Assembly: GCF_001650905.1 (NCBI RefSeq)
Contig: NZ_LXYG01000015.1
Location: 13,232 to 37,231, forward strand
Length of the DNA: 24,000 nucleotides
Source of the DNA: Balneola sp. EhC07
Lineage (GTDB): Bacteria; Bacteroidota; Rhodothermia; Balneolales; Balneolaceae
Direction: 5' to 3'
The notes beneath the pieces are model-generated. The model saw only the letters and a program-made list of their open reading frames with translations. It made no database searches and had not been told where the DNA came from. The position numbers were made by a program, and so were the translations under genes. Below are positions 8,625-20,039 of this stretch, piece after piece (the stretch's first letter is position 1; each line of letters starts with the position of its first letter).

Positions 8625-8653
8625 AGCACGTTTATTTTAATTCTGAATTTAAA

Positions 8654-8681
8654 AGCTCTGATGAAAATCAGGGCTTTTTTT
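8654..8681. terminator. Strong hairpin terminator shared by convergent pdhC (+) and the MotB-like gene (-)
   Basis: 9-bp stem agctctgat (8654-8662) / atcagggct (8667-8675, one G-U pair on the + transcript), GAAA tetraloop, T7 tail to 8681. A4 lies on the other side, so weaker function on the minus strand is possible. The stop codon of the minus-strand gene (8680-8682) abuts it. Confidence 0.8.
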
Positions 8682-10413
8682 ATATCCGTTCATTCAGATA
8701 CATAACAGGAGATAATTCTGAACTATCACGATCGAGAATTGTATAAAGTTCGTTTATTTCATCCCAATCTGAAAACGGTCTTGTTAGCAAATAATAACGT
8801 CCGTTGCTAAAGGTCCTGATACTACTTTGTACATTCATTTCACTTCTAAGTCGTTCGGAAAGTTGATCTACTTCCTGTTTAGAAGAAAAAGAACCCAATT
8901 GTATCTGGTAAGTAAACGTATATTCTGAGACAGTAGAGGGGTCATACTTTATAAAAGCATCTTTAAGTATTTCGATATTCTGTATAGCCTCTAATCTTTG
9001 TAAGGCTGTTGAAATATCGTTTATAGAAGCAGTTAGTACTGTATATGCCTGAAGAGATTTTTCTTCTACAACTGCTTCAATATTGTATTCCTGAGCAAGG
9101 GTTTCTTTAAATGATAAAGCTCCTTGTTCATTTTGAAAGAAAGCCAGTTGAATTTGATATTTAAGAGCCTGAGGCCGTTCCTTTCCATTGTTATAGCATT
9201 GTTGAACAAAACCTGTTATTTGGCTTTTTCCCAGTTTCTCTTCGATAGTACTTTGCAAAGCCATAGTTTCAGAAAAGGAAGTACTACTGGCCGTTCTGGT
9301 TGAGAACAAGGAGTTATTATACATTATCTCAAATTCGTAACCGGTTTTTTGTTCCGTTTCTTTGGAAAAAGCTAAGCTGTTAAAAAAGGATTCAAAGCCT
9401 CCGGCCTGAACTGAATACCTGCAACCGTTTTCAAAATTTCCGGTGTTTACGTTTCTGATTTCCGCTTTTGAAACAGGAACAGTTGGGGTAGAGGTAGGTG
9501 CAGAGATTTGTACAGGGGGCTCTTCTGTTTCTTCAGCAATAGCCTCTTCATTCGATTCAGCTTGTACATCTGTTCTTGCTAAATCATCAGAACTATTTAC
9601 TGCATCTGATTCTTCCGGTACTTCAGCCTCAGCATTAGTCGATTCATCATTTGATCCCAATTCAGGCTCGGAGGATTCCTGATCAGTAGAAACAGAATCT
9701 GCTTTTGCCATTTGTTCAGGGCTTGAATAAAATAATCTGAGAACAACTCTTCTGTTCTTATCTTTACTGGCAGGATAAGGATTGCCCTGTTCATCAAATT
9801 CAACTAAAGGTCGGGAGTCAGCATAACCGGATGCTTTTAAACGTTCCTGAGCAATTCCCATTTCACTGAAATACTTTACAATATTAGATGCTCTTGAGGT
9901 AGATAACTCCCAATTCGAATCAAAGTTAGCGGAAGAAATAGGAACATTATCTGTGTGGCCTTCAACGTCTATTTCAAAATCGTTATAGGATATGATCCTG
10001 AAAGCTGCCAAAACACGGTTAAGGATTTCTGATGCTTCGTTTTCTAAAGTAGCGCTTCCTGAGCTGTATAGATCATCACTTTTGAATCTAATGCGTACAT
10101 CATTTAGTTCTCTGAATATCTCAAGCTTACCTTGTTCAATTTCTGGTGCCAGCAATCCTTCAAGTTCTTCTTTAATGTTTTCAATCGGTGTAGTGATAAA
10201 CTCGGTTTCATTCAAAGAAGATTTGAATAAATCAGAAACAGAAAAGGGCTCTCCATCATTTAAATCTGAGAAAGAAAGTAAAATGACCAAAAAACCAAGA
10301 AGAATGGTAATAATATCAAGATAACTTACCTGCCAACTGTCGTCATCTTCACTTTCAATTTCCTGCTTAGGATACAGTGAATTCTTTGTATTATTTGACT
10401 GATCTAAACTCAA
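8680..10413 (-). CDS. MotB-like stator protein with OmpA-like peptidoglycan-binding domain, acidic linker and three C-terminal SPOR-like repeats
   Basis: 577 aa. N-terminal MotB signature SWQVSYLDIITILLGFLVILLSF with a conserved Asp in the single TM (Asp33, codon 10315-10317; counterpart of E. coli MotB Asp32). OmpA-like core EGHTDNVPI...NWELSTSRASNIVKYF...GYADSRPL...NRRVVLRL (aa about 100-228). Asp/Glu/Ser-rich linker (aa about 232-315). Three repeats of the SPOR pattern (YSVQAGGFESFFNSLAF..., YQIQLAFFQNEQGALSFKETL..., YQIQLGSFSSKQEVDQLSERL...). Confidence 0.8.
   Translation of the reverse strand: MSLDQSNNTKNSLYPKQEIESEDDDSWQVSYLDIITILLGFLVILLSFSDLNDGEPFSVSDLFKSSLNETEFITTPIENIKEELEGLLAPEIEQGKLEIFRELNDVRIRFKSDDLYSSGSATLENEASEILNRVLAAFRIISYNDFEIDVEGHTDNVPISSANFDSNWELSTSRASNIVKYFSEMGIAQERLKASGYADSRPLVEFDEQGNPYPASKDKNRRVVLRLFYSSPEQMAKADSVSTDQESSEPELGSNDESTNAEAEVPEESDAVNSSDDLARTDVQAESNEEAIAEETEEPPVQISAPTSTPTVPVSKAEIRNVNTGNFENGCRYSVQAGGFESFFNSLAFSKETEQKTGYEFEIMYNNSLFSTRTASSTSFSETMALQSTIEEKLGKSQITGFVQQCYNNGKERPQALKYQIQLAFFQNEQGALSFKETLAQEYNIEAVVEEKSLQAYTVLTASINDISTALQRLEAIQNIEILKDAFIKYDPSTVSEYTFTYQIQLGSFSSKQEVDQLSERLRSEMNVQSSIRTFSNGRYYLLTRPFSDWDEINELYTILDRDSSELSPVMYLNERI
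8683..9423 (-). repeat. Three tandem SPOR-like protein repeats inside the MotB-like CDS
   Basis: Protein-level repeats start near aa 331, 417 and 500. Each begins [YR]Y[SQ][VI]Q[AL]G/A.F... followed by an amphipathic helix and a second beta hairpin, as in SPOR (sporulation-related repeat) domains. Diverged at DNA level. Confidence 0.55.
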
Positions 10414-10424
10414 TTTCCGCTACC

Positions 10425-11222
10425 CTAAAATTGTTGACTTGTTCTATGCATATGAGCTTTGAGTTTGTCGTAGATCTGAAGCGAAGATTTTTGCTGTTGA
10501 ATCAACAGAATTCCTTCCAAAATCAGTTTTTCTCTGAAAAATTGAAGAGAAGCAATATTATTCATCTTTTTTGCCATTGGAATAAAGATGAAATTCCCAA
10601 TTATGATACCATAAAGAGTGGTCATAAGTGCAGCTGCAAGTCCTGTTAATAAAGAATCCATTTCATTAAAACCGGACAGAATAACGATAAGTCCAAATAG
10701 TGTTCCCAGCATACCGAAGACGGGTGCTGTTTTCCCCATACTTGCAATTATTTGATTGATCTGCTGTTGTCGTGTAAATGTTTCCTGAATATTTATTTCG
10801 GCTAACTCACGAAGATCTTCTGTTGAATAATTGGTATCTAAAATTGAAAAGAGATACCCTTCAAAACGATTTCCATACTCCTCACTTAATTCAGAAACAG
10901 CTTTAATTTTATTGATCCGAATTCTTTTTTGCCACTCTAAGATTTTTTCAATGTCTGTTTCAAGTAACTGATCATCTATATTGCTTTGAGAAAAAAGCCT
11001 TGTACTTTCTCGTAGTGCTCTAATGACTTTCTTAAAGGGATAGCTAATGAATACACTTGCTGATATACCTCCAAATACTATTGCAAGACTTGGAAGGTTA
11101 AGAAACTCATATTTTGATGGAATCATATTGTATTGAGCGAACCCAACCACAAGTAGAGCTCCCCATACTAAAATTGCTAAGGAAACTAAGAAACAAAAAA
11201 TGTTTAAAAATGATGTGCGCAT
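10425..11222 (-). CDS. MotA/PomA-type stator channel protein (MotA_ExbB family, 4-TM flagellar-stator architecture)
   Basis: 265 aa. TM1-TM2 pair, then an approximately 100-aa charged cytoplasmic loop. TM3 APVFGMLGTLFGLIVIL and TM4 LMTTLYGIIIGNFIFIPMAKK keep the conserved prolines. MotA-type C-terminal tail REKLILEGILLIQQQKSSLQIYDKL (compare the MotA consensus EGIL.IQ.G.NP). 11 nt upstream of the MotB-like gene. Confidence 0.85.
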   Translation of the reverse strand: MRTSFLNIFCFLVSLAILVWGALLVVGFAQYNMIPSKYEFLNLPSLAIVFGGISASVFISYPFKKVIRALRESTRLFSQSNIDDQLLETDIEKILEWQKRIRINKIKAVSELSEEYGNRFEGYLFSILDTNYSTEDLRELAEINIQETFTRQQQINQIIASMGKTAPVFGMLGTLFGLIVILSGFNEMDSLLTGLAAALMTTLYGIIIGNFIFIPMAKKMNNIASLQFFREKLILEGILLIQQQKSSLQIYDKLKAHMHRTSQQF

Positions 11223-11257: not shown

Positions 11258-11737
11258 TCATTCTATTAAGCCTTGTCTCTTTAACTCATCGATTATAGCA
11301 GGAGAGGGGGGTATGGGTAAGTTCTCATCCATTTCGAGAGCTCTTCTCCAAAAAGCCACGAAGTTCTCAGTAGAACCCAATCCCAAATAGATGCTCCCTT
11401 TCAAAGCAAGCAGATCCGCAGTTTCCTTTACCTGTAAAGCACGGTTAATTAAAAATAGAGCGTCCTGATACTCTCCACTATAAAATTTCTGTTGAGAGAG
11501 AATATAAAGCGTGGTAATCCTGTTGGCTTTCGTTTGATAGTCTTTATGAAGTTCTTCTTTATATACCTGCATCAATGAATCTCTTCGGGCCTTTTCAAGA
11601 TCTATTTCCTCAGGATCGTTTGTATCAGAACTCTCCGTTTGAGTTAAAGGACTTTCATTTTGATCTGATTCAACGGGGCCATTAACCGATGTACTTTTAG
11701 TACTTCTGCAAGAAAACAGAAACGATATCCACATCAT
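11258..11737 (-). CDS. TPR-repeat lipoprotein (putative)
   Basis: 159 aa. Short signal with a lipobox-like FLFS/C (Cys10). Ser/Thr/Asp/Glu-rich tether. C-terminal TPR module (FYSGEYQDALFLINRALQVKETADLLALKGSIYLGLG...WRRALEMD). That module is paralogous to the C-terminus of the 993-aa usher-like protein. Confidence 0.6.
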   Translation of the reverse strand: MMWISFLFSCRSTKSTSVNGPVESDQNESPLTQTESSDTNDPEEIDLEKARRDSLMQVYKEELHKDYQTKANRITTLYILSQQKFYSGEYQDALFLINRALQVKETADLLALKGSIYLGLGSTENFVAFWRRALEMDENLPIPPSPAIIDELKRQGLIE

Positions 11738-11774: not shown

Positions 11775-13601
11775 TTATTCTTGATCTGCTTTGCTTAGTT
11801 TTAACGATTTTCTAAGAGAACTGACCAATTTCTTTTTGGCCTCTGCATTAATTTGATGTTCACCGTTTATAGATTCAAGCTCAAGGCGAATTAATTGTTG
11901 CTCGCGTTTTGGCCTTCCATTTAAAATTTTATCTATAGATGCTGTTTCAAGCCCAATTAATGCTTCCAGTAATGTGGAAGTGTCTAGTTCTTCAACACCA
12001 TTTTTGACTACTTCGTCTTCTAATTCAGGAATCTGGTCTATAGTAAAGAATTCTTTTTCTAATATTATACCTACTTGTGAGCCTGTAGATTTCAACTGCT
12101 CGATATATCTTCGCTGTTCGTCTACAGGAAGATTTTCAAGAATTGGTAAAATATTTTCAACACCAAAATCCTGCTCATGTACATTGTCTCTTACTAAGAT
12201 TGCTTTTTCAAACAATCCGCTGGAAATTTTACTCTGTTCTTTATAGGAGAGCGTATGCAGAGTAGACATTTTAAGCATAATTTCTGCGGCTCTGGATCTT
12301 TCAAACGTATTTAAGATAGAAGCGGCTTTATCCTCAGGTAAGTAATCAATTATGAGGGCTGCACTTACATTGTTTTCAGTTTTTATAAGCTCAGTTAACA
12401 GATCATCAGATAGGTGAGTCAGAAACTTGAACAGCCCAAGCTTAGCATGTTTTTTTTGTGATTTTTCATCGGTGCTTTCATCCTTAATAATAGAATTAAA
12501 GTACTTGGCAGCTCTGTATTTTTCATCAATAGACATTGGGGGTAGATTTCGTATAGCTACCTTAATAGTCTCTAGTTTTTCTTCGTCTATATGATTTTGG
12601 AGTAATTTAAGAGAGCTGGAATCAATAGATGAAACAACTTCAGCAACATTTGAAGGTCCATTTTTTTCGTCACTATCAATCCAGAATTCGAAAACCAAAG
12701 AAACCTCCTGTGGATATTTGAAAAAGTTTTCTGAAACTAATTCGAACTCAGAAACTATATCCCGGGAATGTTCTTTAGAACTTCCGAAGAAGGAAAGATT
12801 ACTATCGGGGTTTAAACTTCCTTCCACCGTAATGTCACTTTTAAGATTATCTCTTTGAGACTGGAAATCAGATTTATCTCTGGAGTTTCTAAATATTCCG
12901 TATCCAAATAATCCAAGTAAAAATACTGCAAGTAAAATTATTTCAACCAAATAGTCTTTGAAAGAACTTAAGAGGGGTTTAGGCTCCGGCTCTTCGGTAT
13001 TAGTTATTACAACAGCAGGTTCAAAATCCGGATCAGGGATAGCAAGTTGAGTAATATTTATTACATCACCTCTGGTGAAATCAATTTTAGCAGCAAAACC
13101 AGTTACACGTCTCATAAAGTCTAAATCAGTATCAGACAGGGAGGTATCGGCATATATATTAACAGCAAGGCTATTAAGCTGTAAAGTCTTATAAGTAGTT
13201 TGGTTTGTAGTATTTTGAGGAGTTGTTTGTACAGTTTGGGAATTTTGGAGGTTTTCATCCGGAAGAAAAGGGAGGCCGGGCAAAAAGCTTTGTGAATTTC
13301 TTGTTACAGTTTGAGTACCGGGTGTTTGTAAAGTTTCTTCTATAAATTCAGCTTCAATATTAACGTCTACAAAAAATTTCTTTCTGTCAAAGTGATTAGA
13401 AAGTATTAGAATAATCTGTGAATCGTAAGCCTGTTCAAGTGAAGCAATTTGTAGCTGTCCGGATTGAGAGATGACACCGGAAGATTGAGCTCTTGCTGAT
13501 AAGCCTGAAATGCATAAGACTATTAAGAGAGAGAACAGATATCTCAGCATTAAATACTTCCTCAAATTTTTTTTAACCAACGTATTCATTTTACATATCA
13601 T
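11775..13601 (-). CDS. Bitopic inner-membrane protein: periplasmic FliF/SctJ-like ring-building-motif region fused to cytoplasmic FliG-like (middle + C-terminal torque) domains
   Basis: 608 aa. N-terminal signal/anchor (LRYLFSLLIVLCISGLSARA/Q). Periplasmic aa about 40-215 with two helix-strand modules resembling RBMs (LEQAYDSQIILILSNHFDRKKFFVDVNIEAEF; LNSLAVNIYADTSLSDTDLDFMRRVTGFAAKIDFTRGDVINITQL). TM aa 217-237 (LVEIILLAVFLLGLFGYGIF). Cytoplasmic ARM-like repeats: FliG_M/MgtE_N-like TENNVSAALIIDYLPEDKAASILNTFERSRAAEIMLKMSTL, and FliG_C-like EFFTIDQIPELEDEVVKNGVEELDTSTLLEALIGLETASIDKILNGRPKREQQLIRLELES...AEAKKKLVSSLRK. The latter aligns to the remembered FliG_C consensus MFVFEDI..LDDR.IQ.VLREVD..DLA.ALKGAS.E...KI..NMSKRAA..L.E.LE...P.....EEAQ..I....R.L. 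Met5 (13589) or Met18 are alternative starts. Confidence 0.65.
   Translation of the reverse strand: MICKMNTLVKKNLRKYLMLRYLFSLLIVLCISGLSARAQSSGVISQSGQLQIASLEQAYDSQIILILSNHFDRKKFFVDVNIEAEFIEETLQTPGTQTVTRNSQSFLPGLPFLPDENLQNSQTVQTTPQNTTNQTTYKTLQLNSLAVNIYADTSLSDTDLDFMRRVTGFAAKIDFTRGDVINITQLAIPDPDFEPAVVITNTEEPEPKPLLSSFKDYLVEIILLAVFLLGLFGYGIFRNSRDKSDFQSQRDNLKSDITVEGSLNPDSNLSFFGSSKEHSRDIVSEFELVSENFFKYPQEVSLVFEFWIDSDEKNGPSNVAEVVSSIDSSSLKLLQNHIDEEKLETIKVAIRNLPPMSIDEKYRAAKYFNSIIKDESTDEKSQKKHAKLGLFKFLTHLSDDLLTELIKTENNVSAALIIDYLPEDKAASILNTFERSRAAEIMLKMSTLHTLSYKEQSKISSGLFEKAILVRDNVHEQDFGVENILPILENLPVDEQRRYIEQLKSTGSQVGIILEKEFFTIDQIPELEDEVVKNGVEELDTSTLLEALIGLETASIDKILNGRPKREQQLIRLELESINGEHQINAEAKKKLVSSLRKSLKLSKADQE
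11802..12053 (-). other. FliG C-terminal (torque-helix) like domain within the 608-aa protein
   Basis: aa 517-600. Conserved positions versus the remembered FliG_C consensus: F-x-F/T-x-D, E-[VL]-D-T, L-x-x-A-L-x-G, K-I, K-R-x-x-x-L-x-x-x-E-L-E. The KR...ELE segment occupies the position of the charged torque helix that contacts MotA in flagella. Confidence 0.55.
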
Positions 13602-13618
13602 AGGAACTTTTTATACTC

Positions 13619-16600
13619 CTAGTTTCCTGGTTGAGTTCTTATTAATTGGTCTAATACTTCAATATCCGGAATAAAGATATCAGGATTAAATTCTAATGCT
13701 GTATCCCAGTTTTTTTGAGCTTCTTTTTTATCACCTTGTAAGTAATACAGACTTCCTTTTAAAGCATAACCCTGAGCGGTTTCAAATAGGCTCAAAGACT
13801 CGTTGACTAATGTCAGAGCCCTGTCAATATCTCTGTTATAAAAAGCAGTTTGTGCCTGGATAATCAATCTTAATGTCCGATCAATATTTTCATCATATTC
13901 TTCCTGAAGTTGAATTATTTCATCCGATTGGCTGATTTCTGCTAATATGCTTGTATCAGGTACTATTTCAATGTTACGGATGTCAAAGTCTTTTGGAACA
14001 AGCACTATGCTAAGCCCTTCTATGAAATCTCCTTCCGGTATAGACCTTACCTCAAAGTTAGGTAAACTATCGCGTATTTTTGAATCTAAAATATCTAACT
14101 GACTCTGATCAATGCTTAGTTTATACTTTCCGGGAGGTATCTCAAAAGAATAAAAACTCCCATCTGAAAATGTCCTGATCTCTTTAAAAAAGTCACTATC
14201 AATTGAAGAAATTATAACTTTAAGGCCGGCTATTCCGGATTTTCTTCCATTTTCAAAAAATCGTTCAACTGTTCCTTCAACAACACCGGACATATAAAAT
14301 GGAATTTCCACTTTCTTGAATCGATTTGGATCGGTAATCAAACCAAAATTTTCAAACTCCGGTACTAGCATAGGATTTCTTATAGCTCCTTTATTCAATT
14401 CCATATTGTAGTAAAAATAAGGCTGCATCTGCGTGAAATAATGGACTCCATTTTTGGAAAAGTTCATTGCACCTGATCTTGTGACACGCAGAGCATTTTC
14501 ATTTATCAGGTCATCTTCTTCATCAAAAGTTCCGTTATTATTGTTATCAACGAAAAGTTTAACGGCAGTACCTGATCTGCCAACTTGTTCTCTACTGGTA
14601 AATAAGAAATTATTATAATTTGTATCGTAACCTATAGACCCTCTGAGGTTTTGCGTTAAATTGTAATTGTCTCGAATAGAACTAAAGTTAGAACTGGACC
14701 TTACCTTGTTGAAATCGATACTAAAGCTAAATCTGACAGAGTTAAACTTATTAAAGAAATTTCTACCTACTGAAAATTGAAATCTTCCATTTTTGAAAAT
14801 GCTTCTTGAGATAAATAATTGTGCAGATTCAATTTCTTTTTGAATAGGCAAATAACGCATTTGAGCTCTCAAAAAAGTTCCTTTTAAGTAGGAGGGGATA
14901 TTTCGATTACGCGAAATTGTATATGTAACTGAGTTTTCAATTGCAGCTAAACTTGTTGGAGAAAGAATATCAAACCGCCCAAAATATCTATCGATATAAC
15001 CTATTCGGACATTAAATTTATTAAATCGAGAATTTGCATCCGCTCTGAACGTTGTAATACTGGATGATTCACCAAAACGAGAAAAGGCAGAAACTCTTAC
15101 ATTAAGAGGGGTAGAGCCGAATGAAAAAGGGTAGAACAGAGTGCTGCTTATTCGTTTATCATCATTAGAAGGATTATAAATACTAAATCCGGATGAGTAA
15201 TTTATAAAATCAACATTAAAACTTGCTGAATTAGGATAAACAGCATTTAATGTAGATCGATAGAAAGCATCGGTTGCTCCTTCAAGAGTAAAAATATAAT
15301 TCGTGGATATTCTGGAAGAAAGAGACGAAATAAAAGTTGGCAAAGTAGTATGAAATCCTTCATAATATTCAATACCAGCCTTAGCAGTAAGCCAATCAGT
15401 CAATCCATATGATCCCGATCCTTGTGCTGTTAGTACTCGGTTGGACGTGCCTATCAAAGGATTATCTAGTTCACCGAGGTTTACTATGTAGTTAAACTCG
15501 CCGGCCGGCTGGAAGTTAAAAGGAACCTGAATACGATTTGACCTTTCTATGATTTGACCGGTAGGACCATAAATTCTTAGATCTAGTTGAGTTGCACCAT
15601 AAGTAAGCGGGGCTAAGAACCTGTAGTCACCGGCTTGATCAGAAATTTGAAAATCTATTAGTGCATTATTAAGGTAGAGTTCCACTTCTGATTGAGGAAT
15701 AGTAGTGCCCTGAACCTCAAATTCATCAAATAGTCGTCTAGGCTCTACCGGTTCATTTGAAAAACGAACTCCGCTGTATGGGCTTTTATTTACACCATCT
15801 GTAAGAGTTTGACCAATGGTCAATTTTGTAATTATATTTTGATCTCTAAAGTATCTTCTCCACCTAAGATTATTAGTGGAAAAGTTTGAAAAGTTTTCAG
15901 AAAAGCTCCCAAATAACGAGCCCTGAAGATCTCCTCCATAAAGTTGTAAACCAATATTACTATTATAGTTGTATATATTAACTTGATCAGATAAGTTTGC
16001 AGAAAGGTTATAGTCGACAAATCCACCATCCAAGAAAGGTTTCTTCCTCTTAAATTTAAGGTCATAATTATTTTCAGAGAAACGGTTGTTGTCGGCAACT
16101 CTTCGTTTTTGGTTTCTTAATACTTTCTGTATTACGGGGAGTTCTTTCTGTGTAATCAAACTAAGTCTTAGATTCCCGAAGTCAACCATAAAATCCAACT
16201 GAAATATATCATAGAAAAATTCAGGCTTTAAATAGAAATCTATTTCTTTGATTAAAAAATCCTCTGAAGAAATTTGATGAGTTTCGTTTCCGAATCTGAT
16301 AAAATTGTCCTGGAGATTTATGGAATATGGAGTTTGTTCTGAAGAGAAATTTCCCGATATAATCAAACCATCCTGATTATTTTCTATACCAAGGAGATTG
16401 AAGATTTCATTTACAGGGAGGTAAAAATTGTCATCTTTATAATAAGAGATAACAACAGTATTTATTATTCCGCGATGCCTGAATTCAAGATATACTTCGG
16501 ATTCGTCAGAAGTATTCTGAGCGGAAGCTTCAGGTTGTGTTAGAAGTACACAAAAGAGAAAGAAGCATATCTTTACAGTTATTTTGAACCAATCTCTCAA
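13619..16600 (-). CDS. Usher-like outer-membrane assembly protein with CarboxypepD_reg-like domain and C-terminal TPR module
   Basis: 993 aa. Signal peptide (FCVLLTQPEASA/Q). N-terminal domain resembling usher NTD (YLEFRHRGIINTVVISYYKDDNFYLPVNEIFNLLGIE). Long beta-strand-rich, aromatic/Asn/Ser-rich barrel-like region. Plug-like segment FEVQGTTIPQSEVELYLNNALIDFQISDQAGDYRFLAPLTYGATQLDLRIYGPTGQIIE (compare the usher pattern V.G...p.a.V.v..NG..i....v.aG.F.i.dl....G.l.v.v....G). Ig/CarboxypepD_reg-like GVVEGTVERFFENGRKSGIAGLKVIISS...FSDGSFYSFEIPPGKYKLSI. TPR at aa about 905-993. Sits next to the chaperone-like and pilin-like genes. Confidence 0.55.
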   Translation of the reverse strand: MRDWFKITVKICFFLFCVLLTQPEASAQNTSDESEVYLEFRHRGIINTVVISYYKDDNFYLPVNEIFNLLGIENNQDGLIISGNFSSEQTPYSINLQDNFIRFGNETHQISSEDFLIKEIDFYLKPEFFYDIFQLDFMVDFGNLRLSLITQKELPVIQKVLRNQKRRVADNNRFSENNYDLKFKRKKPFLDGGFVDYNLSANLSDQVNIYNYNSNIGLQLYGGDLQGSLFGSFSENFSNFSTNNLRWRRYFRDQNIITKLTIGQTLTDGVNKSPYSGVRFSNEPVEPRRLFDEFEVQGTTIPQSEVELYLNNALIDFQISDQAGDYRFLAPLTYGATQLDLRIYGPTGQIIERSNRIQVPFNFQPAGEFNYIVNLGELDNPLIGTSNRVLTAQGSGSYGLTDWLTAKAGIEYYEGFHTTLPTFISSLSSRISTNYIFTLEGATDAFYRSTLNAVYPNSASFNVDFINYSSGFSIYNPSNDDKRISSTLFYPFSFGSTPLNVRVSAFSRFGESSSITTFRADANSRFNKFNVRIGYIDRYFGRFDILSPTSLAAIENSVTYTISRNRNIPSYLKGTFLRAQMRYLPIQKEIESAQLFISRSIFKNGRFQFSVGRNFFNKFNSVRFSFSIDFNKVRSSSNFSSIRDNYNLTQNLRGSIGYDTNYNNFLFTSREQVGRSGTAVKLFVDNNNNGTFDEEDDLINENALRVTRSGAMNFSKNGVHYFTQMQPYFYYNMELNKGAIRNPMLVPEFENFGLITDPNRFKKVEIPFYMSGVVEGTVERFFENGRKSGIAGLKVIISSIDSDFFKEIRTFSDGSFYSFEIPPGKYKLSIDQSQLDILDSKIRDSLPNFEVRSIPEGDFIEGLSIVLVPKDFDIRNIEIVPDTSILAEISQSDEIIQLQEEYDENIDRTLRLIIQAQTAFYNRDIDRALTLVNESLSLFETAQGYALKGSLYYLQGDKKEAQKNWDTALEFNPDIFIPDIEVLDQLIRTQPGN
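13661..13864 (-). other. TPR module at the usher-like C-terminus, paralogous to the lipoprotein module at 11309-11506
   Basis: Hand alignment of usher-like aa 914-978 with lipoprotein aa 79-143: 25 identical residues over 65 ungapped positions (FY...AL.L.N..L...ETA...ALKGS.Y...G........W..ALE......IP). Similarity continues to both C-termini after a 1-residue shift (D.L.R). Confidence 0.7.
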
Positions 16601-16636: not shown

Positions 16637-17470
16637 TTATTGTATTTGAACGGTGGTACTGGAAGCTGAGGGCGACATTTGGACTAGATCTTGTTCAGAT
16701 ACGTCGTTACGTTCTGATACAAATTCTACTTTAACCTGATAGCTACCAGGCTCCATATCTTCAATGTTAAAATTTTGCCCATGAGTGCCGTCAAAATAAA
16801 AGCTGGTTGATAATGATGAAGTTCTCATAATTTTCCCATCTTTAATTATGGACGTAGTAACCGTACCTAAAAAAGGCGAGTTTCCAGTGCGTTCAAAATC
16901 AGATAATATCTGTATCGTATTTTCATCAATCATTCTTGTTCTGATTTGATTGATGTTAATACCGGTATTTGTTTCTCCAACTTTATAAAATAACCCGGTA
17001 ATTTGTTCAAATTTCACTCCAATTTGAGCATTTACAGCGTCAGAGGCTCCAAGCTCTAATGGAGGGCTTTCCGGTGTTGAAGTAGTTCTTATGCGAGCCC
17101 AATAAGTCTGTTCAACCAAATCTTGTGAAGCGTTTATTCTTAAACGAACGATTTGACGACTACCACTTTGAAGTACAAAATTTTGAGGAAAGGCCCTTAC
17201 GTTTTCCGCTATGGAATAATTTTGTGCAATTTCTGAACTATCCCTCACAAAACTTTTATCACCAAATTCGTTAGTATCAAAATATCCAAATAGAAAATCT
17301 ACAGAGATTTCTTGTGGTTGTTGAGAATTATTGATAACCATAAATGTTCCAAATCTGGAATTGTCATCAAGAAACATGTTTGTAGGTGCAATTGTAACCT
17401 GCGACAGAACTGTTGCAGATAAAATCACACATAAAAATAACCCGCCTGTAATAACCCTTATTATATTCAT
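16637..17470 (-). CDS. Periplasmic pilus-assembly chaperone-like protein (PapD/MSP Ig-fold, two-domain)
   Basis: 277 aa. Signal peptide (LFLCVILSATVLS/Q). N-terminal pattern VTIAPTNMFLDDNSRFGTFMVINNSQQPQEISVDF and FPQNFVLQSGSRQIVRLRIN...QTYWARIRTT resembles the PapD_N consensus (i.P.r.i......s..l.v.N.....; l.PP...l.pg..q.vRi.....e..f.l.v.e.p). All-beta second domain. Position between pilin-like genes and the usher-like gene. The canonical PapD Arg8 is not obviously conserved. Confidence 0.45.
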   Translation of the reverse strand: MNIIRVITGGLFLCVILSATVLSQVTIAPTNMFLDDNSRFGTFMVINNSQQPQEISVDFLFGYFDTNEFGDKSFVRDSSEIAQNYSIAENVRAFPQNFVLQSGSRQIVRLRINASQDLVEQTYWARIRTTSTPESPPLELGASDAVNAQIGVKFEQITGLFYKVGETNTGININQIRTRMIDENTIQILSDFERTGNSPFLGTVTTSIIKDGKIMRTSSLSTSFYFDGTHGQNFNIEDMEPGSYQVKVEFVSERNDVSEQDLVQMSPSASSTTVQIQ

Positions 17471-17542
17471 GACTGCTTTTTAGTTGTAAATGATGCAGTA
17501 AAGTAAAGAATTAAAATCAAATATATTTTGGATAGTTTTAAT

Positions 17543-17574
17543 AAAAAAAAAGTCCCGCTTTTAACGAGACTTTT
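17543..17574 (-). terminator. Intrinsic terminator after the 183-aa pilin-like gene (intra-cluster attenuator)
   Basis: Minus-strand RNA AAAAGUCUCG-UUAAAA-GCGGGACUUUUUUUUU: stem GUCUCG/CGGGAC (one G-U pair) extendable by A-U pairs, followed by a U9 tract. Lies 22 nt after the stop at 17596 and about 70 nt before the chaperone-like start. Confidence 0.65.
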
Positions 17575-17595
17575 AATTCGTTTAAGACTAATCTA

Positions 17596-18147
17596 TCACT
17601 GATAGTTAACAGTGAAAGTTAAATCTCCGGAAGCACCTGCAGTACCACTGTCAGAAGTATAAGTTCCGGCAGCTTGACCTGAAAGTGCACCTAAGTTACC
17701 ACCGATGTATACAAATAATGCACCGCCAGCAGAAGTTTCAGTAGCTGCACCTGCAGTTGCTTTAGTTACATCACTTGAACTTGCAATTGCATCTGTACTA
17801 TTCGCAGAAACATCAGGAGTGAAAGTCATTGAATTAGTTCCGTCACTTAATGTAACAGTTGCTTGATCCCAGTCAATAACTAACTGAGTTGTGTTAGCAG
17901 CAGAAATGGAGAATTTTCCAAAAGTTGCGCCACCACCAACATCAGCAGTGTTAGTACCTTGAGGATCAAGAACAGGAGAACCTGTATCCTGAATGTTTCC
18001 GAAACTTACATCAGAAACGAAGGTAAGTGCAATGTCAGCAAGAATAACAGCAGATGTGTTAATATCTTGTGTTTCCTGTGCATTAGCTACAGGATTAGCA
18101 AAAGCAACAAGAGCTAAAGCAGTAATGATATATTTTAAATTTTTCAT
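17596..18147 (-). CDS. DUF4402/SCPU-like secreted pilin candidate (probable major subunit)
   Basis: 183 aa. Signal peptide MKNLKYIITALALVAFANPVANA/Q. Thr/Ser/Ala/Gly-rich all-beta composition. Motifs SFGNI about 25 aa after the cleavage site and C-terminal GTYTSDSGTAGASGDLTFTVNYQ, matching my memory of DUF4402 proteins (...G.Y.g...vtV.Y-x end). Own upstream 120-nt gap and downstream terminator. Confidence 0.7.
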   Translation of the reverse strand: MKNLKYIITALALVAFANPVANAQETQDINTSAVILADIALTFVSDVSFGNIQDTGSPVLDPQGTNTADVGGGATFGKFSISAANTTQLVIDWDQATVTLSDGTNSMTFTPDVSANSTDAIASSSDVTKATAGAATETSAGGALFVYIGGNLGALSGQAAGTYTSDSGTAGASGDLTFTVNYQ

Positions 18148-18186
18148 AGTTTTTTAATTTGTGTGAAGTAGAGTTGTATTCTTTAT

Positions 18187-18217
18187 TCAAGCTAACGACT
18201 ATCTGATTTGTTTCAAA
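18187..18217 (-). promoter_or_regulatory. Candidate Bacteroidota-style promoter upstream of the 183-aa pilin-like gene
   Basis: Minus strand TTTG (18217-18214) - N19 - TAGCTTGA (18194-18187). This is a partial match to the Bacteroidetes sigma-A consensus TTTG-N19-21-TAnnTTTG (last two positions mismatch). It lies in the 120-nt intergenic gap. Confidence 0.25.
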
Positions 18218-18267
18218 TTAGAGTGTTTTAATGAAGATTTCTTAATGTTTCTAAATAAAGAGTGTGG

Positions 18268-18801
18268 TTATTCATAAGTAACACTTACAACCACTTCTGC
18301 AGTGTATATTCCATTAGGGATGTTTCCTACATCAATACCTCCATACACATAAAGGAACATTTCCTGCCATACATCTCCGGAGTTGGAAAGATTTTCATCT
18401 CCGTCATAGATTGATATTAATCCTTGATTATTAGATAAAGGCACAGCATTGTTGATATTATTTACTCCTGAATTATTATAAGAGGCTTCTAATTGCAAAG
18501 GGATACGTTCTGTTACTGCAGGATTAATATTAATGAGCTCTTCAGGAACCAACATGTTAATTTGTATATTTTGAGTATAATAAGCTCTTATAGAAAACAC
18601 TCCCATTCTTACATCGCCAATCCGAACTTCTCTGTACCCCGAATTTGAAACCACGTTTCCAAAATCGAGTGATTGTTCAACGGTCACATTTAATTCAGGT
18701 TCAATTTTAAGGCGTAGATTGATAAACTGGCTATTAGCTGGTATAAGGTCAAGCGTTACCCAAATAAAGCTTATTAGCATTATGATCGATGACTTAATCA
18801 T
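18268..18801 (-). CDS. DUF4402-like secreted pilin paralog (minor subunit candidate)
   Basis: 177 aa. N-terminal hydrophobic signal. LDFGNV motif, IPLQLEASYNNSGVNNINN segment (shared with the 216-aa paralog), and C-terminal GIYTAEVVVSVTYE. Its start overlaps the upstream gene stop by 8 nt (ATGATTAA). Confidence 0.6.
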   Translation of the reverse strand: MIKSSIIMLISFIWVTLDLIPANSQFINLRLKIEPELNVTVEQSLDFGNVVSNSGYREVRIGDVRMGVFSIRAYYTQNIQINMLVPEELININPAVTERIPLQLEASYNNSGVNNINNAVPLSNNQGLISIYDGDENLSNSGDVWQEMFLYVYGGIDVGNIPNGIYTAEVVVSVTYE

Positions 18802-19444
18802 AATTTATCGTTACAGAAATACTTGAATTGTAACTGCCTGCGTCAACGTTGCCTATATTAATTGATCCATATATATATAGATATGCAGTTTCATTGAATA
18901 TGCTCGGATCATATCCTTCATAAACAGGGGTTGGGGGAGGGCCTGGAGGACCATTAGTTCTTTGTAATATCTGAAACTGAGCACTTGCTACATTAGATAA
19001 CACCGTGATGTTAACTGATTCATTAACATTGTTATTACCCCGATTAGCATAAGCAGCTTCTAAGGTAAAAGGGATTCTGCAAGAGGGGTCCGTTTCACAT
19101 CCAAGATCTCCATTTAGCAAAAGATAGTTATCAGCTGTAATGTCTACTAACACATCCAGATATTTAACACCCTCGAGGGTCAATATTTTTGCATTAACTA
19201 AATCGATAGACGCCGGGCCTTGATTTTGTATCAACGTGCCGAATTCTAATTCTTCAGATGGATTAAATTCTGATAATGAAATGCTATATGCACTACTATA
19301 CTGACCAAAGTCAATTTCCTGAGCAGAAACAGATGTAGAGCTACTTATACTTGTAATTAAAAAGACAATGCAACAAAAAACAGAATATTTAAGATATGCC
19401 GGTGATTTTTGATAAGAAGCTATTTTTATTAAAATGCTATTCAT
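18794..19444 (-). CDS. DUF4402-like secreted pilin paralog with Cys pair and Pro-rich insertion
   Basis: 216 aa. Signal ending SSTSVSA/QE. LEFGTL motif, IPFTLEAAYANRGNNNVNE, and C-terminal GSYNSSISVTINYD. Unique GCETDPSC and NGPPGPPPTP insertions. Confidence 0.6.
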   Translation of the reverse strand: MNSILIKIASYQKSPAYLKYSVFCCIVFLITSISSSTSVSAQEIDFGQYSSAYSISLSEFNPSEELEFGTLIQNQGPASIDLVNAKILTLEGVKYLDVLVDITADNYLLLNGDLGCETDPSCRIPFTLEAAYANRGNNNVNESVNITVLSNVASAQFQILQRTNGPPGPPPTPVYEGYDPSIFNETAYLYIYGSINIGNVDAGSYNSSISVTINYD

Positions 19445-19484
19445 TTAATTAATGTCTACGATCATTAAAATTACAATGCCAACA

Positions 19485-19988
19485 TCATATGTAATCAATC
19501 TCTATGGTAAAGTCTCCTTCGTAATTACCTGGAACTGCATTTGTAATATTAATTCTTCCACCAATCCAAAAGTAATATCGGCCCTCAAGACTAAATTGAA
19601 TAGATCTGTTCTCTGTATCTAAAAGTTCTGATGTAGATTGGTTTTCAATAGAGTTGCCGGAAATTTCATACATAAAAGTTAATGTTGATGTACCATCAAC
19701 TTGAGTTAATACAATTTCCGGAAGATATGTGAGTCTGAAAGCTGCTTCGGGATTACCGGTAGCAATCATAAAGCCCGCATTAATACTGTTGATCGGATTT
19801 ACGTATAGTTCTTGTTGTCCGGGCTGTACATTTCCGAACGTCATAGACTGAACTGTAATTAAATCAATACTGGAAACTATATTAGCGCCTACCTTAATAT
19901 CTCCAGAAACCTGAATATTTTGTTCTTGAGCAAATAGAAAATGATTTGTACTAACTAAAATAATGAGGGATACGACTAATTTTTTCAT
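19485..19988 (-). CDS. DUF4402-like secreted pilin paralog (most divergent)
   Basis: Signal MKKLVVSLIILVSTNHFLFA/Q. Met at 19988 is preferred; the longest ORF starts at 20003 with MQLFSMKK. MTFGNV motif and C-terminal PGNYEGDFTIEIDYI. Confidence 0.6.
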   Translation of the reverse strand: MKKLVVSLIILVSTNHFLFAQEQNIQVSGDIKVGANIVSSIDLITVQSMTFGNVQPGQQELYVNPINSINAGFMIATGNPEAAFRLTYLPEIVLTQVDGTSTLTFMYEISGNSIENQSTSELLDTENRSIQFSLEGRYYFWIGGRINITNAVPGNYEGDFTIEIDYI

Positions 19989-20039
19989 GCTGAATAATTG
20001 CATATAAAATTAATAATTACCAGTTAATTCTTTTTAATA

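Follow-up and report, generated by a model that had tools for sequence, protein, structure and literature searches.

A flagellar-type MotA/MotB pair with a triple-SPOR extension in a Balneola genome that encodes no flagellum, probably a stator fixed at an outer-membrane pore

What does a stator of the flagellar type do in a bacterium that has no flagellum? The question is raised by a gene pair of Balneola sp. EhC07 (assembly GCF_001650905.1), found in a stretch of 24,000 nucleotides on contig NZ_LXYG01000015.1 (positions 13,232 to 37,231 of the forward strand). This whole stretch is called the window below, and coordinates are counted from its first letter. An earlier note, made by a model from the letters of the window and a list of its open reading frames (ORFs), had drawn attention to a MotA-like and a MotB-like gene, the latter carrying two kinds of putative cell-wall anchors. 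Both ORFs are present as described on the minus strand, the 265-aa A subunit at 10425-11222 and the 577-aa B subunit at 8680-10413, with 11 bases between the end of motA and motB; the B subunit consists of a MotB core of 229 aa, a linker and a cassette of three SPOR-like units, hereafter the tri-SPOR cassette. Taken together, our results make it rather probable that the pair is a flagellar-type stator at work in a bacterium without a flagellum, and that the tri-SPOR cassette is a wall anchor which fixes this stator at a pore.

The A subunit had been said to have the flagellar-stator layout of four transmembrane (TM) helices rather than the three of ExbB/TolQ, and hydropathy, the predicted model, the PDB and NCBIfam comparisons, Foldseek and the trees all agree with it. 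In fact, hydropathy reveals four hydrophobic helices, at about residues 5-28, 36-60, 167-185 and 191-214, and a cytoplasmic domain of about 100 aa. In the AlphaFold2 model (predicted local distance difference test, pLDDT, 75.5, with the first 39 residues poor), TM1 and TM2 take residues 5-28 and 36-60, an unbroken helix at 134-183 contains TM3, and TM4 at 188-242 is followed by a tail helix; four short helices (63-78, 84-103, 105-116 and 120-129) lie between TM2 and TM3. Both traits, the four short helices on the cytoplasmic side and a TM3 without a break, are given for the four-helix class of flagellar ion transporters (PMC12505986). Pfam identifies MotA_ExbB with 1.9e-18, and the NCBIfam models for MotP/PomA/MotA match with 2e-33 to 4e-29 against 1.6e-3 for TolQ. 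In the PDB, Clostridium sporogenes MotA (3.4e-23) and PomA (4e-20) both match across residues 38-258, and the MotA/PomA matches overall range from 3e-23 to 1e-10, against 2e-3 for TolQ and 0.39 for ExbB, while GldL is not found among the hits up to E = 10. NCBIfam and the PDB hence put MotA/PomA some 20 orders of magnitude ahead of TolQ/ExbB. The model behaves likewise in Foldseek, where ranks 1-23 are all MotA/PomA (E 4e-10 to 7e-6, TM-score 0.65-0.78) and ExbB/TolQ appear from rank 24 on (E about 8e-3, TM-score 0.35-0.46).

The trees point the same way. The MotAs of flagella and those of modules like the one in the window form one clade apart from ExbB/TolQ, with support 100/99 in a tree that still included a wrongly extracted ORF (G206_nearFlhA, branch length 5.7). 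In the tree rebuilt without this ORF and the long-branch sequence G206_x4, the module MotAs have a clade of their own (99/96) and the flagellar MotAs are grouped with support 87/85. By sequence, tree and predicted fold, the A subunit is therefore of the flagellar-stator type and is neither ExbB/TolQ nor ZorA. The ExbB/TolQ type, with three TM helices, a small cytoplasmic domain and a kinked TM3, is ruled out by the four TM helices, the unbroken TM3 and the separate clade; as for the Zorya system ZorAB, MotA has no PADLOC ZorA match, and MotB has only a generic ZorB/MotB similarity (1.8e-17).

Several residues known from other stators can be located as well. In the TM3-TM4 channel region (10578-10745, minus strand), which holds P167, P215, T174, T201 and T202, the two prolines align with P173 and P222 of E. 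coli MotA, and the C-terminal tail LILEGILLIQ aligns with the same motif in C. sporogenes MotA, Paenibacillus MotA1 and PomA, just as the conserved TM3/TM4 prolines and the EGILLIQ tail of the earlier note would have it. The threonines T174/T201/T202 stand at the positions of PomA T158/T185/T186, and Asp33 of MotB at that of PomB D24, all of which are needed for Na+ conduction (PMC6677748). From these residues the coupling ion may be Na+, but C. sporogenes MotA has the same three threonines, which speaks against the hint. The cytoplasmic domain (residues about 61-133; 10824-11042, minus strand) is the counterpart of the torque-generating interface. The charged residues facing FliG are R90/E98 in E. 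coli MotA and R88/K89/E96/E97 in PomA, and by HMMER alignment R102 of the window MotA corresponds to PomA R88 and E111 to PomA E97; among the homologues position 105 is always basic and position 102 varies between R, K, N and Q.

The B subunit starts at a TTG codon, the sole in-frame start before codon 42. Its core has one TM helix (residues 29-47; 10273-10329), a MotB_plug region (Pfam residues 18-66; 10216-10362; PF13677 6.6e-7, 29.2 bits against a cut-off of 24) and an OmpA-like peptidoglycan-binding domain (Pfam residues 116-204; 9802-10068; PF00691 1.2e-14), all on the minus strand. The channel aspartate and the OmpA-like domain claimed earlier were both found: Asp33, within WQVSYLDIITILLGF, is encoded by the codon 10315-10317 and is invariant in 41 homologues, as are W27, Q28 and the whole of S30-I37 around it. 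Homology to the periplasmic domains of MotB/PomB spans residues about 72-231, the nearest structures in the PDB being C. sporogenes MotB and PomB (2e-19 to 9e-15), and the wall-binding motif GHTD...NWELSTSRA...RR is again invariant in the 41 homologues. A single TM helix bearing the essential Asp, together with a plug and, on the C-terminal side, an OmpA-like domain for wall binding, makes this protein a B subunit of the stator.

Beyond the core, MotB has a C-terminal extension of 348 residues, in keeping with the roughly 350 counted before. A paralogous MotB of 224 aa, encoded on contig 12 of the same genome, is 41% identical to residues 12-229 and ends in ...RIYY opposite RLFY229 of the window protein; since this SPOR-less paralogue stops exactly where the extension begins, the extension is a clean C-terminal addition. 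It opens with an acidic Ser/Thr/Pro-rich linker (residues 230-328; 9430-9726, minus strand; D/E 25%, K/R 4%), which had been correctly noticed, but whose length is about 99-101 aa and not 85. Across the 41 homologues the linker has 21-154 aa (median 105; D/E 22% against K/R 5.5%), the MotB core 217-231 aa and the C-terminal block 244-250 aa (about 247).

This C-terminal block is the cassette. It consists, on the minus strand, of a divergent SPOR-like unit 1 (residues about 329-408; 9190-9429), identified by hhalign, the model and its cysteines, of unit 2 (about 415-494; 8932-9171), the most canonical one, and of unit 3 (about 495-577; 8683-8931). With a Pfam SPOR (PF05036) cut-off of 21 bits, units 2 and 3 alone score 22.3 and 23.0 bits, and the whole MotB 38.9 bits (1.1e-9) in two stretches. 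By hhalign, units 2 and 3 match each other with 2.4e-14 (probability 98.5%), and unit 1 matches either of them with E about 1e-6 (probability 81-82%). The AlphaFold2 model of the cassette (pLDDT 88.5; predicted template-modelling score, pTM, 0.80) has three beta-alpha-beta-beta-alpha-beta units, and the first-strand Gln is kept in all three. The three SPOR-like repeats proposed earlier thus stand in the model and by hhalign, and fall short in Pfam for unit 1. Two invariant cysteines flank unit 1, Cys331 at the start of its first strand and Cys406 at the end of its last strand; because these two strands are neighbours in the SPOR fold, a Cys331-Cys406 disulfide is plausible from the model. Among solved structures in the PDB, the SPOR domain of CwlC (1X60, E 0.0018) is the only significant relative of the cassette profile, and it is the unit 2 section of this profile that ordinary SPOR proteins match in a library of 1.84 billion proteins. 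Foldseek with the three-domain model returns only generic tandem ferredoxin-like/ACT/RRM proteins with TM-score about 0.2, which is nonspecific; the grounds for the SPOR assignment are therefore Pfam, the comparison of profiles, the topology and the CwlC match. The earlier note had named the lack of a SPOR-like fold as a case against its view; the topology in the model and the CwlC match show such a fold. Binding of the cassette to denuded glycan would follow by analogy with the SPOR family. As separate observations on SPOR domains, contig 17 of this genome (245792-246689) encodes one of 35.9 bits in a 594-aa open frame, which ends about 300 bases before the MotA_ExbB domain of an ExbB/TolQ-type gene, and the library holds a 972-aa protein (P0153) with seven Pfam SPOR domains (238 bits), unrelated to the motor.

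The architecture of plug, OmpA-like domain and SPOR in one MotB is by no means peculiar to this strain. It fills the top 120 protein clusters of the search, thus at least 120, down to 37% identity, and nearly all of the named clusters belong to Balneola or Balneolaceae; conserved to that identity in more than 120 clusters, it is not a product of chance. Its public names are generic (OmpA family protein, SPOR domain-containing protein, chemotaxis protein MotB). The combination had been called unusual, and it is real on MotB, yet it is the rule in about 45 sampled Balneolaceae genomes. Moreover, MotA orthologues are 68-100% identical in 35 genomes across genera, with frames intact, and paralogues 42-47%; from these sequences, the MotA/MotB pair is under strong selection.

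No flagellum is encoded beside this stator. The genome has 3.62 Mb and is 98.6% complete, and neither FlhA nor flagellin was found in it; hence the pair is not a flagellar stator, and a spare stator for a flagellum elsewhere in this genome is refuted as well. FlhA is likewise absent from all 19 genomes of the genus, in agreement with PMC9909488. The case that the earlier note had set against its own view, a pair serving as the only stator of a flagellated host, thus does not apply to this non-flagellate host. Four MotA_ExbB genes are present, two of the ExbB/TolQ type, the window MotA and a paralogue on contig 12. The latter belongs to a second module (L007; G000 contig 12, 10328-15315), which encodes a FliF-FliG fusion of 600 aa, an outer-membrane-like protein of 357 aa ending in ...VFRF, a TPR lipoprotein of 211 aa, a MotA of 274 aa and the plain, SPOR-less MotB mentioned above.

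In flagellate relatives, the module exists side by side with a flagellum. For example in genus g4, FlhA is found in 8/8 genomes, and at least five of them (G049, G079, G085, G087 and G103) have both module MotAs together with a third MotA of the flagellar type; the flagellar-type MotA lies close to flhA in G079 and G129. That the module MotAs and the flagellar MotA of the family have a common origin is not rejected by an approximately unbiased (AU) test (p = 0.3). Similar genes were also seen farther away. In another class of the phylum, a locus of G506 (L051, 7656-12902) has the small module with its genes arranged differently (a 375-aa protein, a TPR protein, MotA, MotB and a FliF-FliG fusion), and several genomes of that family have full-length MotA matches of 25-31% identity. 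Three loci (L050, L052 and L053, in G485, G112 and G299) bear orphan MotA-like genes of 265-270 aa, 29-35% identical to the window MotA, each followed by a gene of 263-286 aa and having no adjacent FliF-FliG gene; such pairs may be a further kind of non-flagellar stator.

In the window, motA and motB are the last gene pair of a conserved co-directional block on the minus strand. Upstream of motA there is consistently the gene of a 159-aa TPR protein (11258-11737), which is the TPR lipoprotein of the operon, and before it that of a 608-aa fusion protein (11775-13601) that has a weak FliF_C match, a single TM helix, FliG_M and FliG_C (TIGR00207 fliG 8.5e-13). The block further contains a 993-aa usher-like outer-membrane protein with TPR repeats at its C-terminus (13619-16600), a chaperone-like gene (277 aa) with four DUF4402 pilin-like genes (16637-20003), and a giant protein with a tail of the type IX secretion system. 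No TolA/TonB-like protein was found by Pfam among the operon proteins. Between the convergent genes motB and that of the pyruvate-dehydrogenase E2 subunit (PDH-E2) lies a hairpin (8651-8678) with a stem of 12 pairs, an A run before and a T run after it; with these flanks it could terminate both genes. In five loci where MotB is 38-46% identical, the full gene order is kept, mostly beside the same alaS and pyruvate-dehydrogenase genes, and in a sixth locus (L055) the contig end falls just upstream of motA. Our literature search found no description of a MotB with SPOR, nor of a FliG/MotAB module beside an usher, and no paper with the term DUF4402.

The fusion protein is the candidate partner of the stator. 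At the positions of FliG R281 and D289, five of six fusion proteins have R and E; because these charges are kept together with R102/K105 and E111 of MotA, a rotor contact is plausible as far as sequences can tell.

A clue to the place of this stator is found in the cassette itself, as it occurs on two partners of one apparatus. In the sample used for the order, 82 of 201 genomes have the cassette, on ORFs of 499-663 aa (the MotB type) in about 45 genomes and on ORFs of 1127-1506 aa in about 34. In G057, a genome of the same genus, the corresponding chromosomal site contains four pilin-like genes, one for a chaperone-like protein and one for an usher-like protein of 1175 aa; no FliF-FliG, TPR lipoprotein, MotA or MotB was found in this locus. 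This usher-like protein is 47% identical to that of the window over residues 9-872. After that it carries the cassette, in the place taken by TPR repeats in the window protein; its cassette aligns collinearly with MotB 329-576 (25% identity, E 1e-14), has both cysteines and scores 53.8 bits as SPOR. Four further motor-less loci in three families likewise have an usher-like protein ending in the cassette, whereas in the Balneolaceae loci with the motor the cassette is on MotB, and the usher-like protein has TPR repeats at its end. Among genomes with the orthologous MotA, 35/35 have the MotB-type cassette, and among family members with the usher-type cassette, 0/11 have the orthologous MotA; as kin are not independent, this is to be read as a pattern and not as a statistic.

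In the cassette tree, the MotB-type copies need one origin only (a core of 19 rows, support 97/98), and the usher-type copies are deeper and paraphyletic. For these reasons, the likeliest history from the sequences is one transfer of the cassette from the pore protein to MotB within Balneolaceae. A search of the whole library, with 1.84 billion representatives, gave 342 matches at E <= 1e-3. All full-length matches classified among the best 150 of them have the cassette at the C-terminus, and the carriers are of the MotB, usher and small-barrel types, with one unknown type in addition; some short matches are probably partial proteins.

The smaller carriers deserve a description of their own. 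Five proteins of 513-530 aa (P0142, P0144, P0146, P0148 and P0161) have a signal peptide and a barrel-like N-terminal part, which a Pro-rich linker joins to the tri-SPOR cassette; both of its cysteines are present. They have the layout of OmpA with the cassette in place of its C-terminal domain, where the call of a small outer-membrane barrel relies on a weak Pfam OMP_b-brl match in P0161 only. Their N-terminal part has no similarity with the 357-aa outer-membrane protein of contig 12. Two others of about 580 aa (P0130 and P0133) have a signal peptide and about 325 residues without a Pfam match before the cassette. Finally, a 1505-aa usher-like frame of G155 (contig 11, 246078-247865) matches the full-length cassette at two separate places, as if the cassette had been duplicated in tandem.

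Putting these results together, the machine that we consider rather probable would work as follows. Ion flow through the channel of MotA and MotB, presumably assembled as MotA5B2, would turn MotA around a wall-fixed MotB. The presumed rotor is the FliF-FliG fusion, whose FliG-like domain would be pushed by the cytoplasmic domain of MotA. The OmpA-like domain would bind peptidoglycan as in MotB/PomB, and the cassette would be a second wall anchor for peptide-free glycan strands, as other SPOR domains are. At first the cassette would have tied the pore to the wall; on MotB, it would fix the stator at the wall site of the pore, or at the septum and new pole. As the same module is on the pore where there is no motor and on the stator where there is one, pore and stator would share one wall site, and from this we infer that the cassette places the stator at the pore. 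The earlier note had likewise suggested a stator beneath an usher-like pore. This guess gains real, if indirect, support from the motor-less sister loci, in which the usher-like protein has this same cassette as its tail. A wider and more tentative reading, which we put forward as possible, is that a FliF-FliG ring and MotAB power an outer-membrane fibre or pore machine outside the flagellum, in Balneolaceae and, with a plain MotB, more widely in Bacteroidota, and that the move of the cassette records the fixing of the stator.

Several observations weigh against this picture. All NCBIfam scores of MotA and MotB are far below the equivalog cut-offs, for example 115.5 bits for the best MotA model against 394. 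Three of the five classical FliG charges (K264, D288 and R297) are lost in the fusion protein. In another family, a motorised locus (L054) has the TPR tail, the TPR lipoprotein, FliF-FliG, MotA and a plain MotB of 220 aa, with no cassette at all, so that the motor does not require it; and no pilin, chaperone or usher-like genes are near the contig-12 module, so that the motor is not tied to pili as such. Unit 1 alone has no Pfam match, and the pTM of 0.80 suggests that the units are packed together, which in the model could bury the glycan-binding faces of their sheets. Moreover, the linker is down to 21 aa in homologues; since it can be so short, reach is not a conserved need, and the long flexible tether on which the earlier note relied is no requirement.

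Other explanations have to be weighed against the fixed stator. SPOR domains are known to target the septum, and the AMIN domains of the PilQ secretin do likewise for type IV pili. The cassette might accordingly be mainly an address label, leading from the septum to the new pole and bearing no load, so that the whole machine turns polar. Units 2 and 3 are Pfam SPOR domains and the first-strand Gln is kept in all three, the presence of one cassette on different carriers of one apparatus fits a targeting tag, and a MotB with a complete OmpA-like anchor does not obviously need a second one; the small barrels with the cassette, however, resemble OmpA analogues, which are general wall tethers rather than polar markers, and we hold the label to be rather unlikely, if still worth keeping in mind. 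It could also be supposed that the SPOR fold was reused for docking and binds, instead of peptidoglycan, some protein or polysaccharide, for example the fibre, the TPR proteins or the usher-like protein. Unit 1 has drifted beyond Pfam recognition and gained its invariant cysteine pair, a compact three-domain body is predicted, and Foldseek relates the three-domain model just to generic tandem ferredoxin-like proteins, all of which suit docking. But the SPOR score of the usher-type cassette is good, the cassette profile is matched by generic SPOR proteins and by the CwlC domain, and barrel plus cassette copies the barrel-plus-wall-binder layout of OmpA; docking in place of wall binding appears very unlikely to us.

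The remaining doubts concern the motor rather than its anchor. A gene set of an A/B motor, an OmpA-like wall binder, a TPR protein and an outer-membrane partner is like that of Tol-Pal, and SPOR domains and Tol-Pal both act at the septum. The pair might thus be an energiser in the style of Tol-Pal/TonB with a flagellar-type sequence, in which ion flow drives a conformational cycle of the envelope (for secretion or for assembly at the pore, for instance) and no FliG ring rotates continuously; the lost FliG charges and the pairing of the module with a non-pilus outer-membrane protein on contig 12 would agree with it. Against such an energiser, MotA is of the flagellar and not the ExbB/TolQ type by sequence, fold and tree, a protein of FliG_M and FliG_C with the R281/D289 counterparts is always encoded alongside, and the operon has no TolA/TonB-like protein; we regard it as unlikely. 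It is scarcely credible that a lost flagellum left these genes behind, or that they provide a spare stator to a flagellum whose genes lie elsewhere. Flagellar genes of Balneolaceae have indeed been read as a broken pathway from a flagellated ancestor (PMC9909488), and the unrejected common origin in the AU test would allow it, but the lack of FlhA and flagellin here and of FlhA throughout the genus, a MotA so well kept across genera with its frame and operon context fixed, the presence of the pair in g4 beside a full set of flagellar genes that includes a MotA of its own, and the separate clade of the module MotAs all speak against it.

Among known systems, the nearest type is MotAB/PomAB (C. 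sporogenes MotAB 6YSF and 8UCS; Vibrio PomAB 8BRD and 8ZYV; the 'TGI4' class of PMC12505986). The likeness covers an A subunit of four TM helices with four cytoplasmic helices, an unbroken TM3, the P173/P222 counterparts and the EG(I/V)LxIQ tail, a B subunit with TM Asp, plug and OmpA-like domain, adjacent A and B genes, a FliG-type partner with the R281/D289 counterparts and the PomA Na+-site threonines; the differences are the lack of a flagellum, a FliF-FliG fusion as partner in a pilus-like operon, the 348-aa extension of MotB and a MotA clade of its own. With SPOR proteins (PF05036) such as FtsN, DamX, DedD, RlpA and CwlC, the cassette shares the fold, the first strand Y-x-[VI]-Q-x-G-x-F, the periplasmic location and the flexible linker, but unlike them it has three units at a fixed length, a cysteine pair around unit 1, and a motor subunit or outer-membrane proteins instead of division proteins as its carriers. 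Tol-Pal (TolQRA, TolB, Pal and CpoB) is also an ion-driven A/B motor linking inner membrane, wall and outer membrane; its TolQ, however, crosses the membrane with three helices and has a small cytoplasmic domain; here TolA and TolB are absent and a FliG-like partner is present. GldLM of type IX secretion and gliding, AglRQS and ZorAB are ion motors of the same superfamily that power a non-flagellar envelope or surface machine, but their branch is the generic, non-flagellar one, and they lack a FliG partner. For an usher-like protein with the cassette at its end, the closest analogue in function is PilQ. Its AMIN domains are wall-binding repeats on an outer-membrane pilus pore, which anchor the machine to the wall and place it there; they differ in fold and in pilus system, and are not known from a stator.

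As for what this means, flagellar-type stators have been treated as one group devoted to flagella in PMC12505986, the sole systematic study that our search found, which makes no mention of SPOR, Balneola or Bacteroidota, and the pair of the window departs from that. Herein a flagellar-type stator is under selection in non-flagellate bacteria, and also beside a separate flagellar stator in flagellate relatives. New in this work are the assignment of the stator to its type, the finding that it occurs alongside flagella in relatives, and the swap of the cassette between pore and stator, which makes the SPOR cassette a rare comparative clue to the wiring of such a machine. In practice, pathway tools that score MotA, MotB and FliG as an 'incomplete flagellum' misread genomes of this kind (PMC9909488). 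If the rotation is true, it would bear on the question of a flagellar motor core working before, or apart from, the rest of the flagellum; and if the tentative reading of a ring and stator powering an outer-membrane machine holds, this would be the first non-flagellar job of the flagellar stator class, and Balneolaceae would have a living partial flagellar motor with a function of its own.

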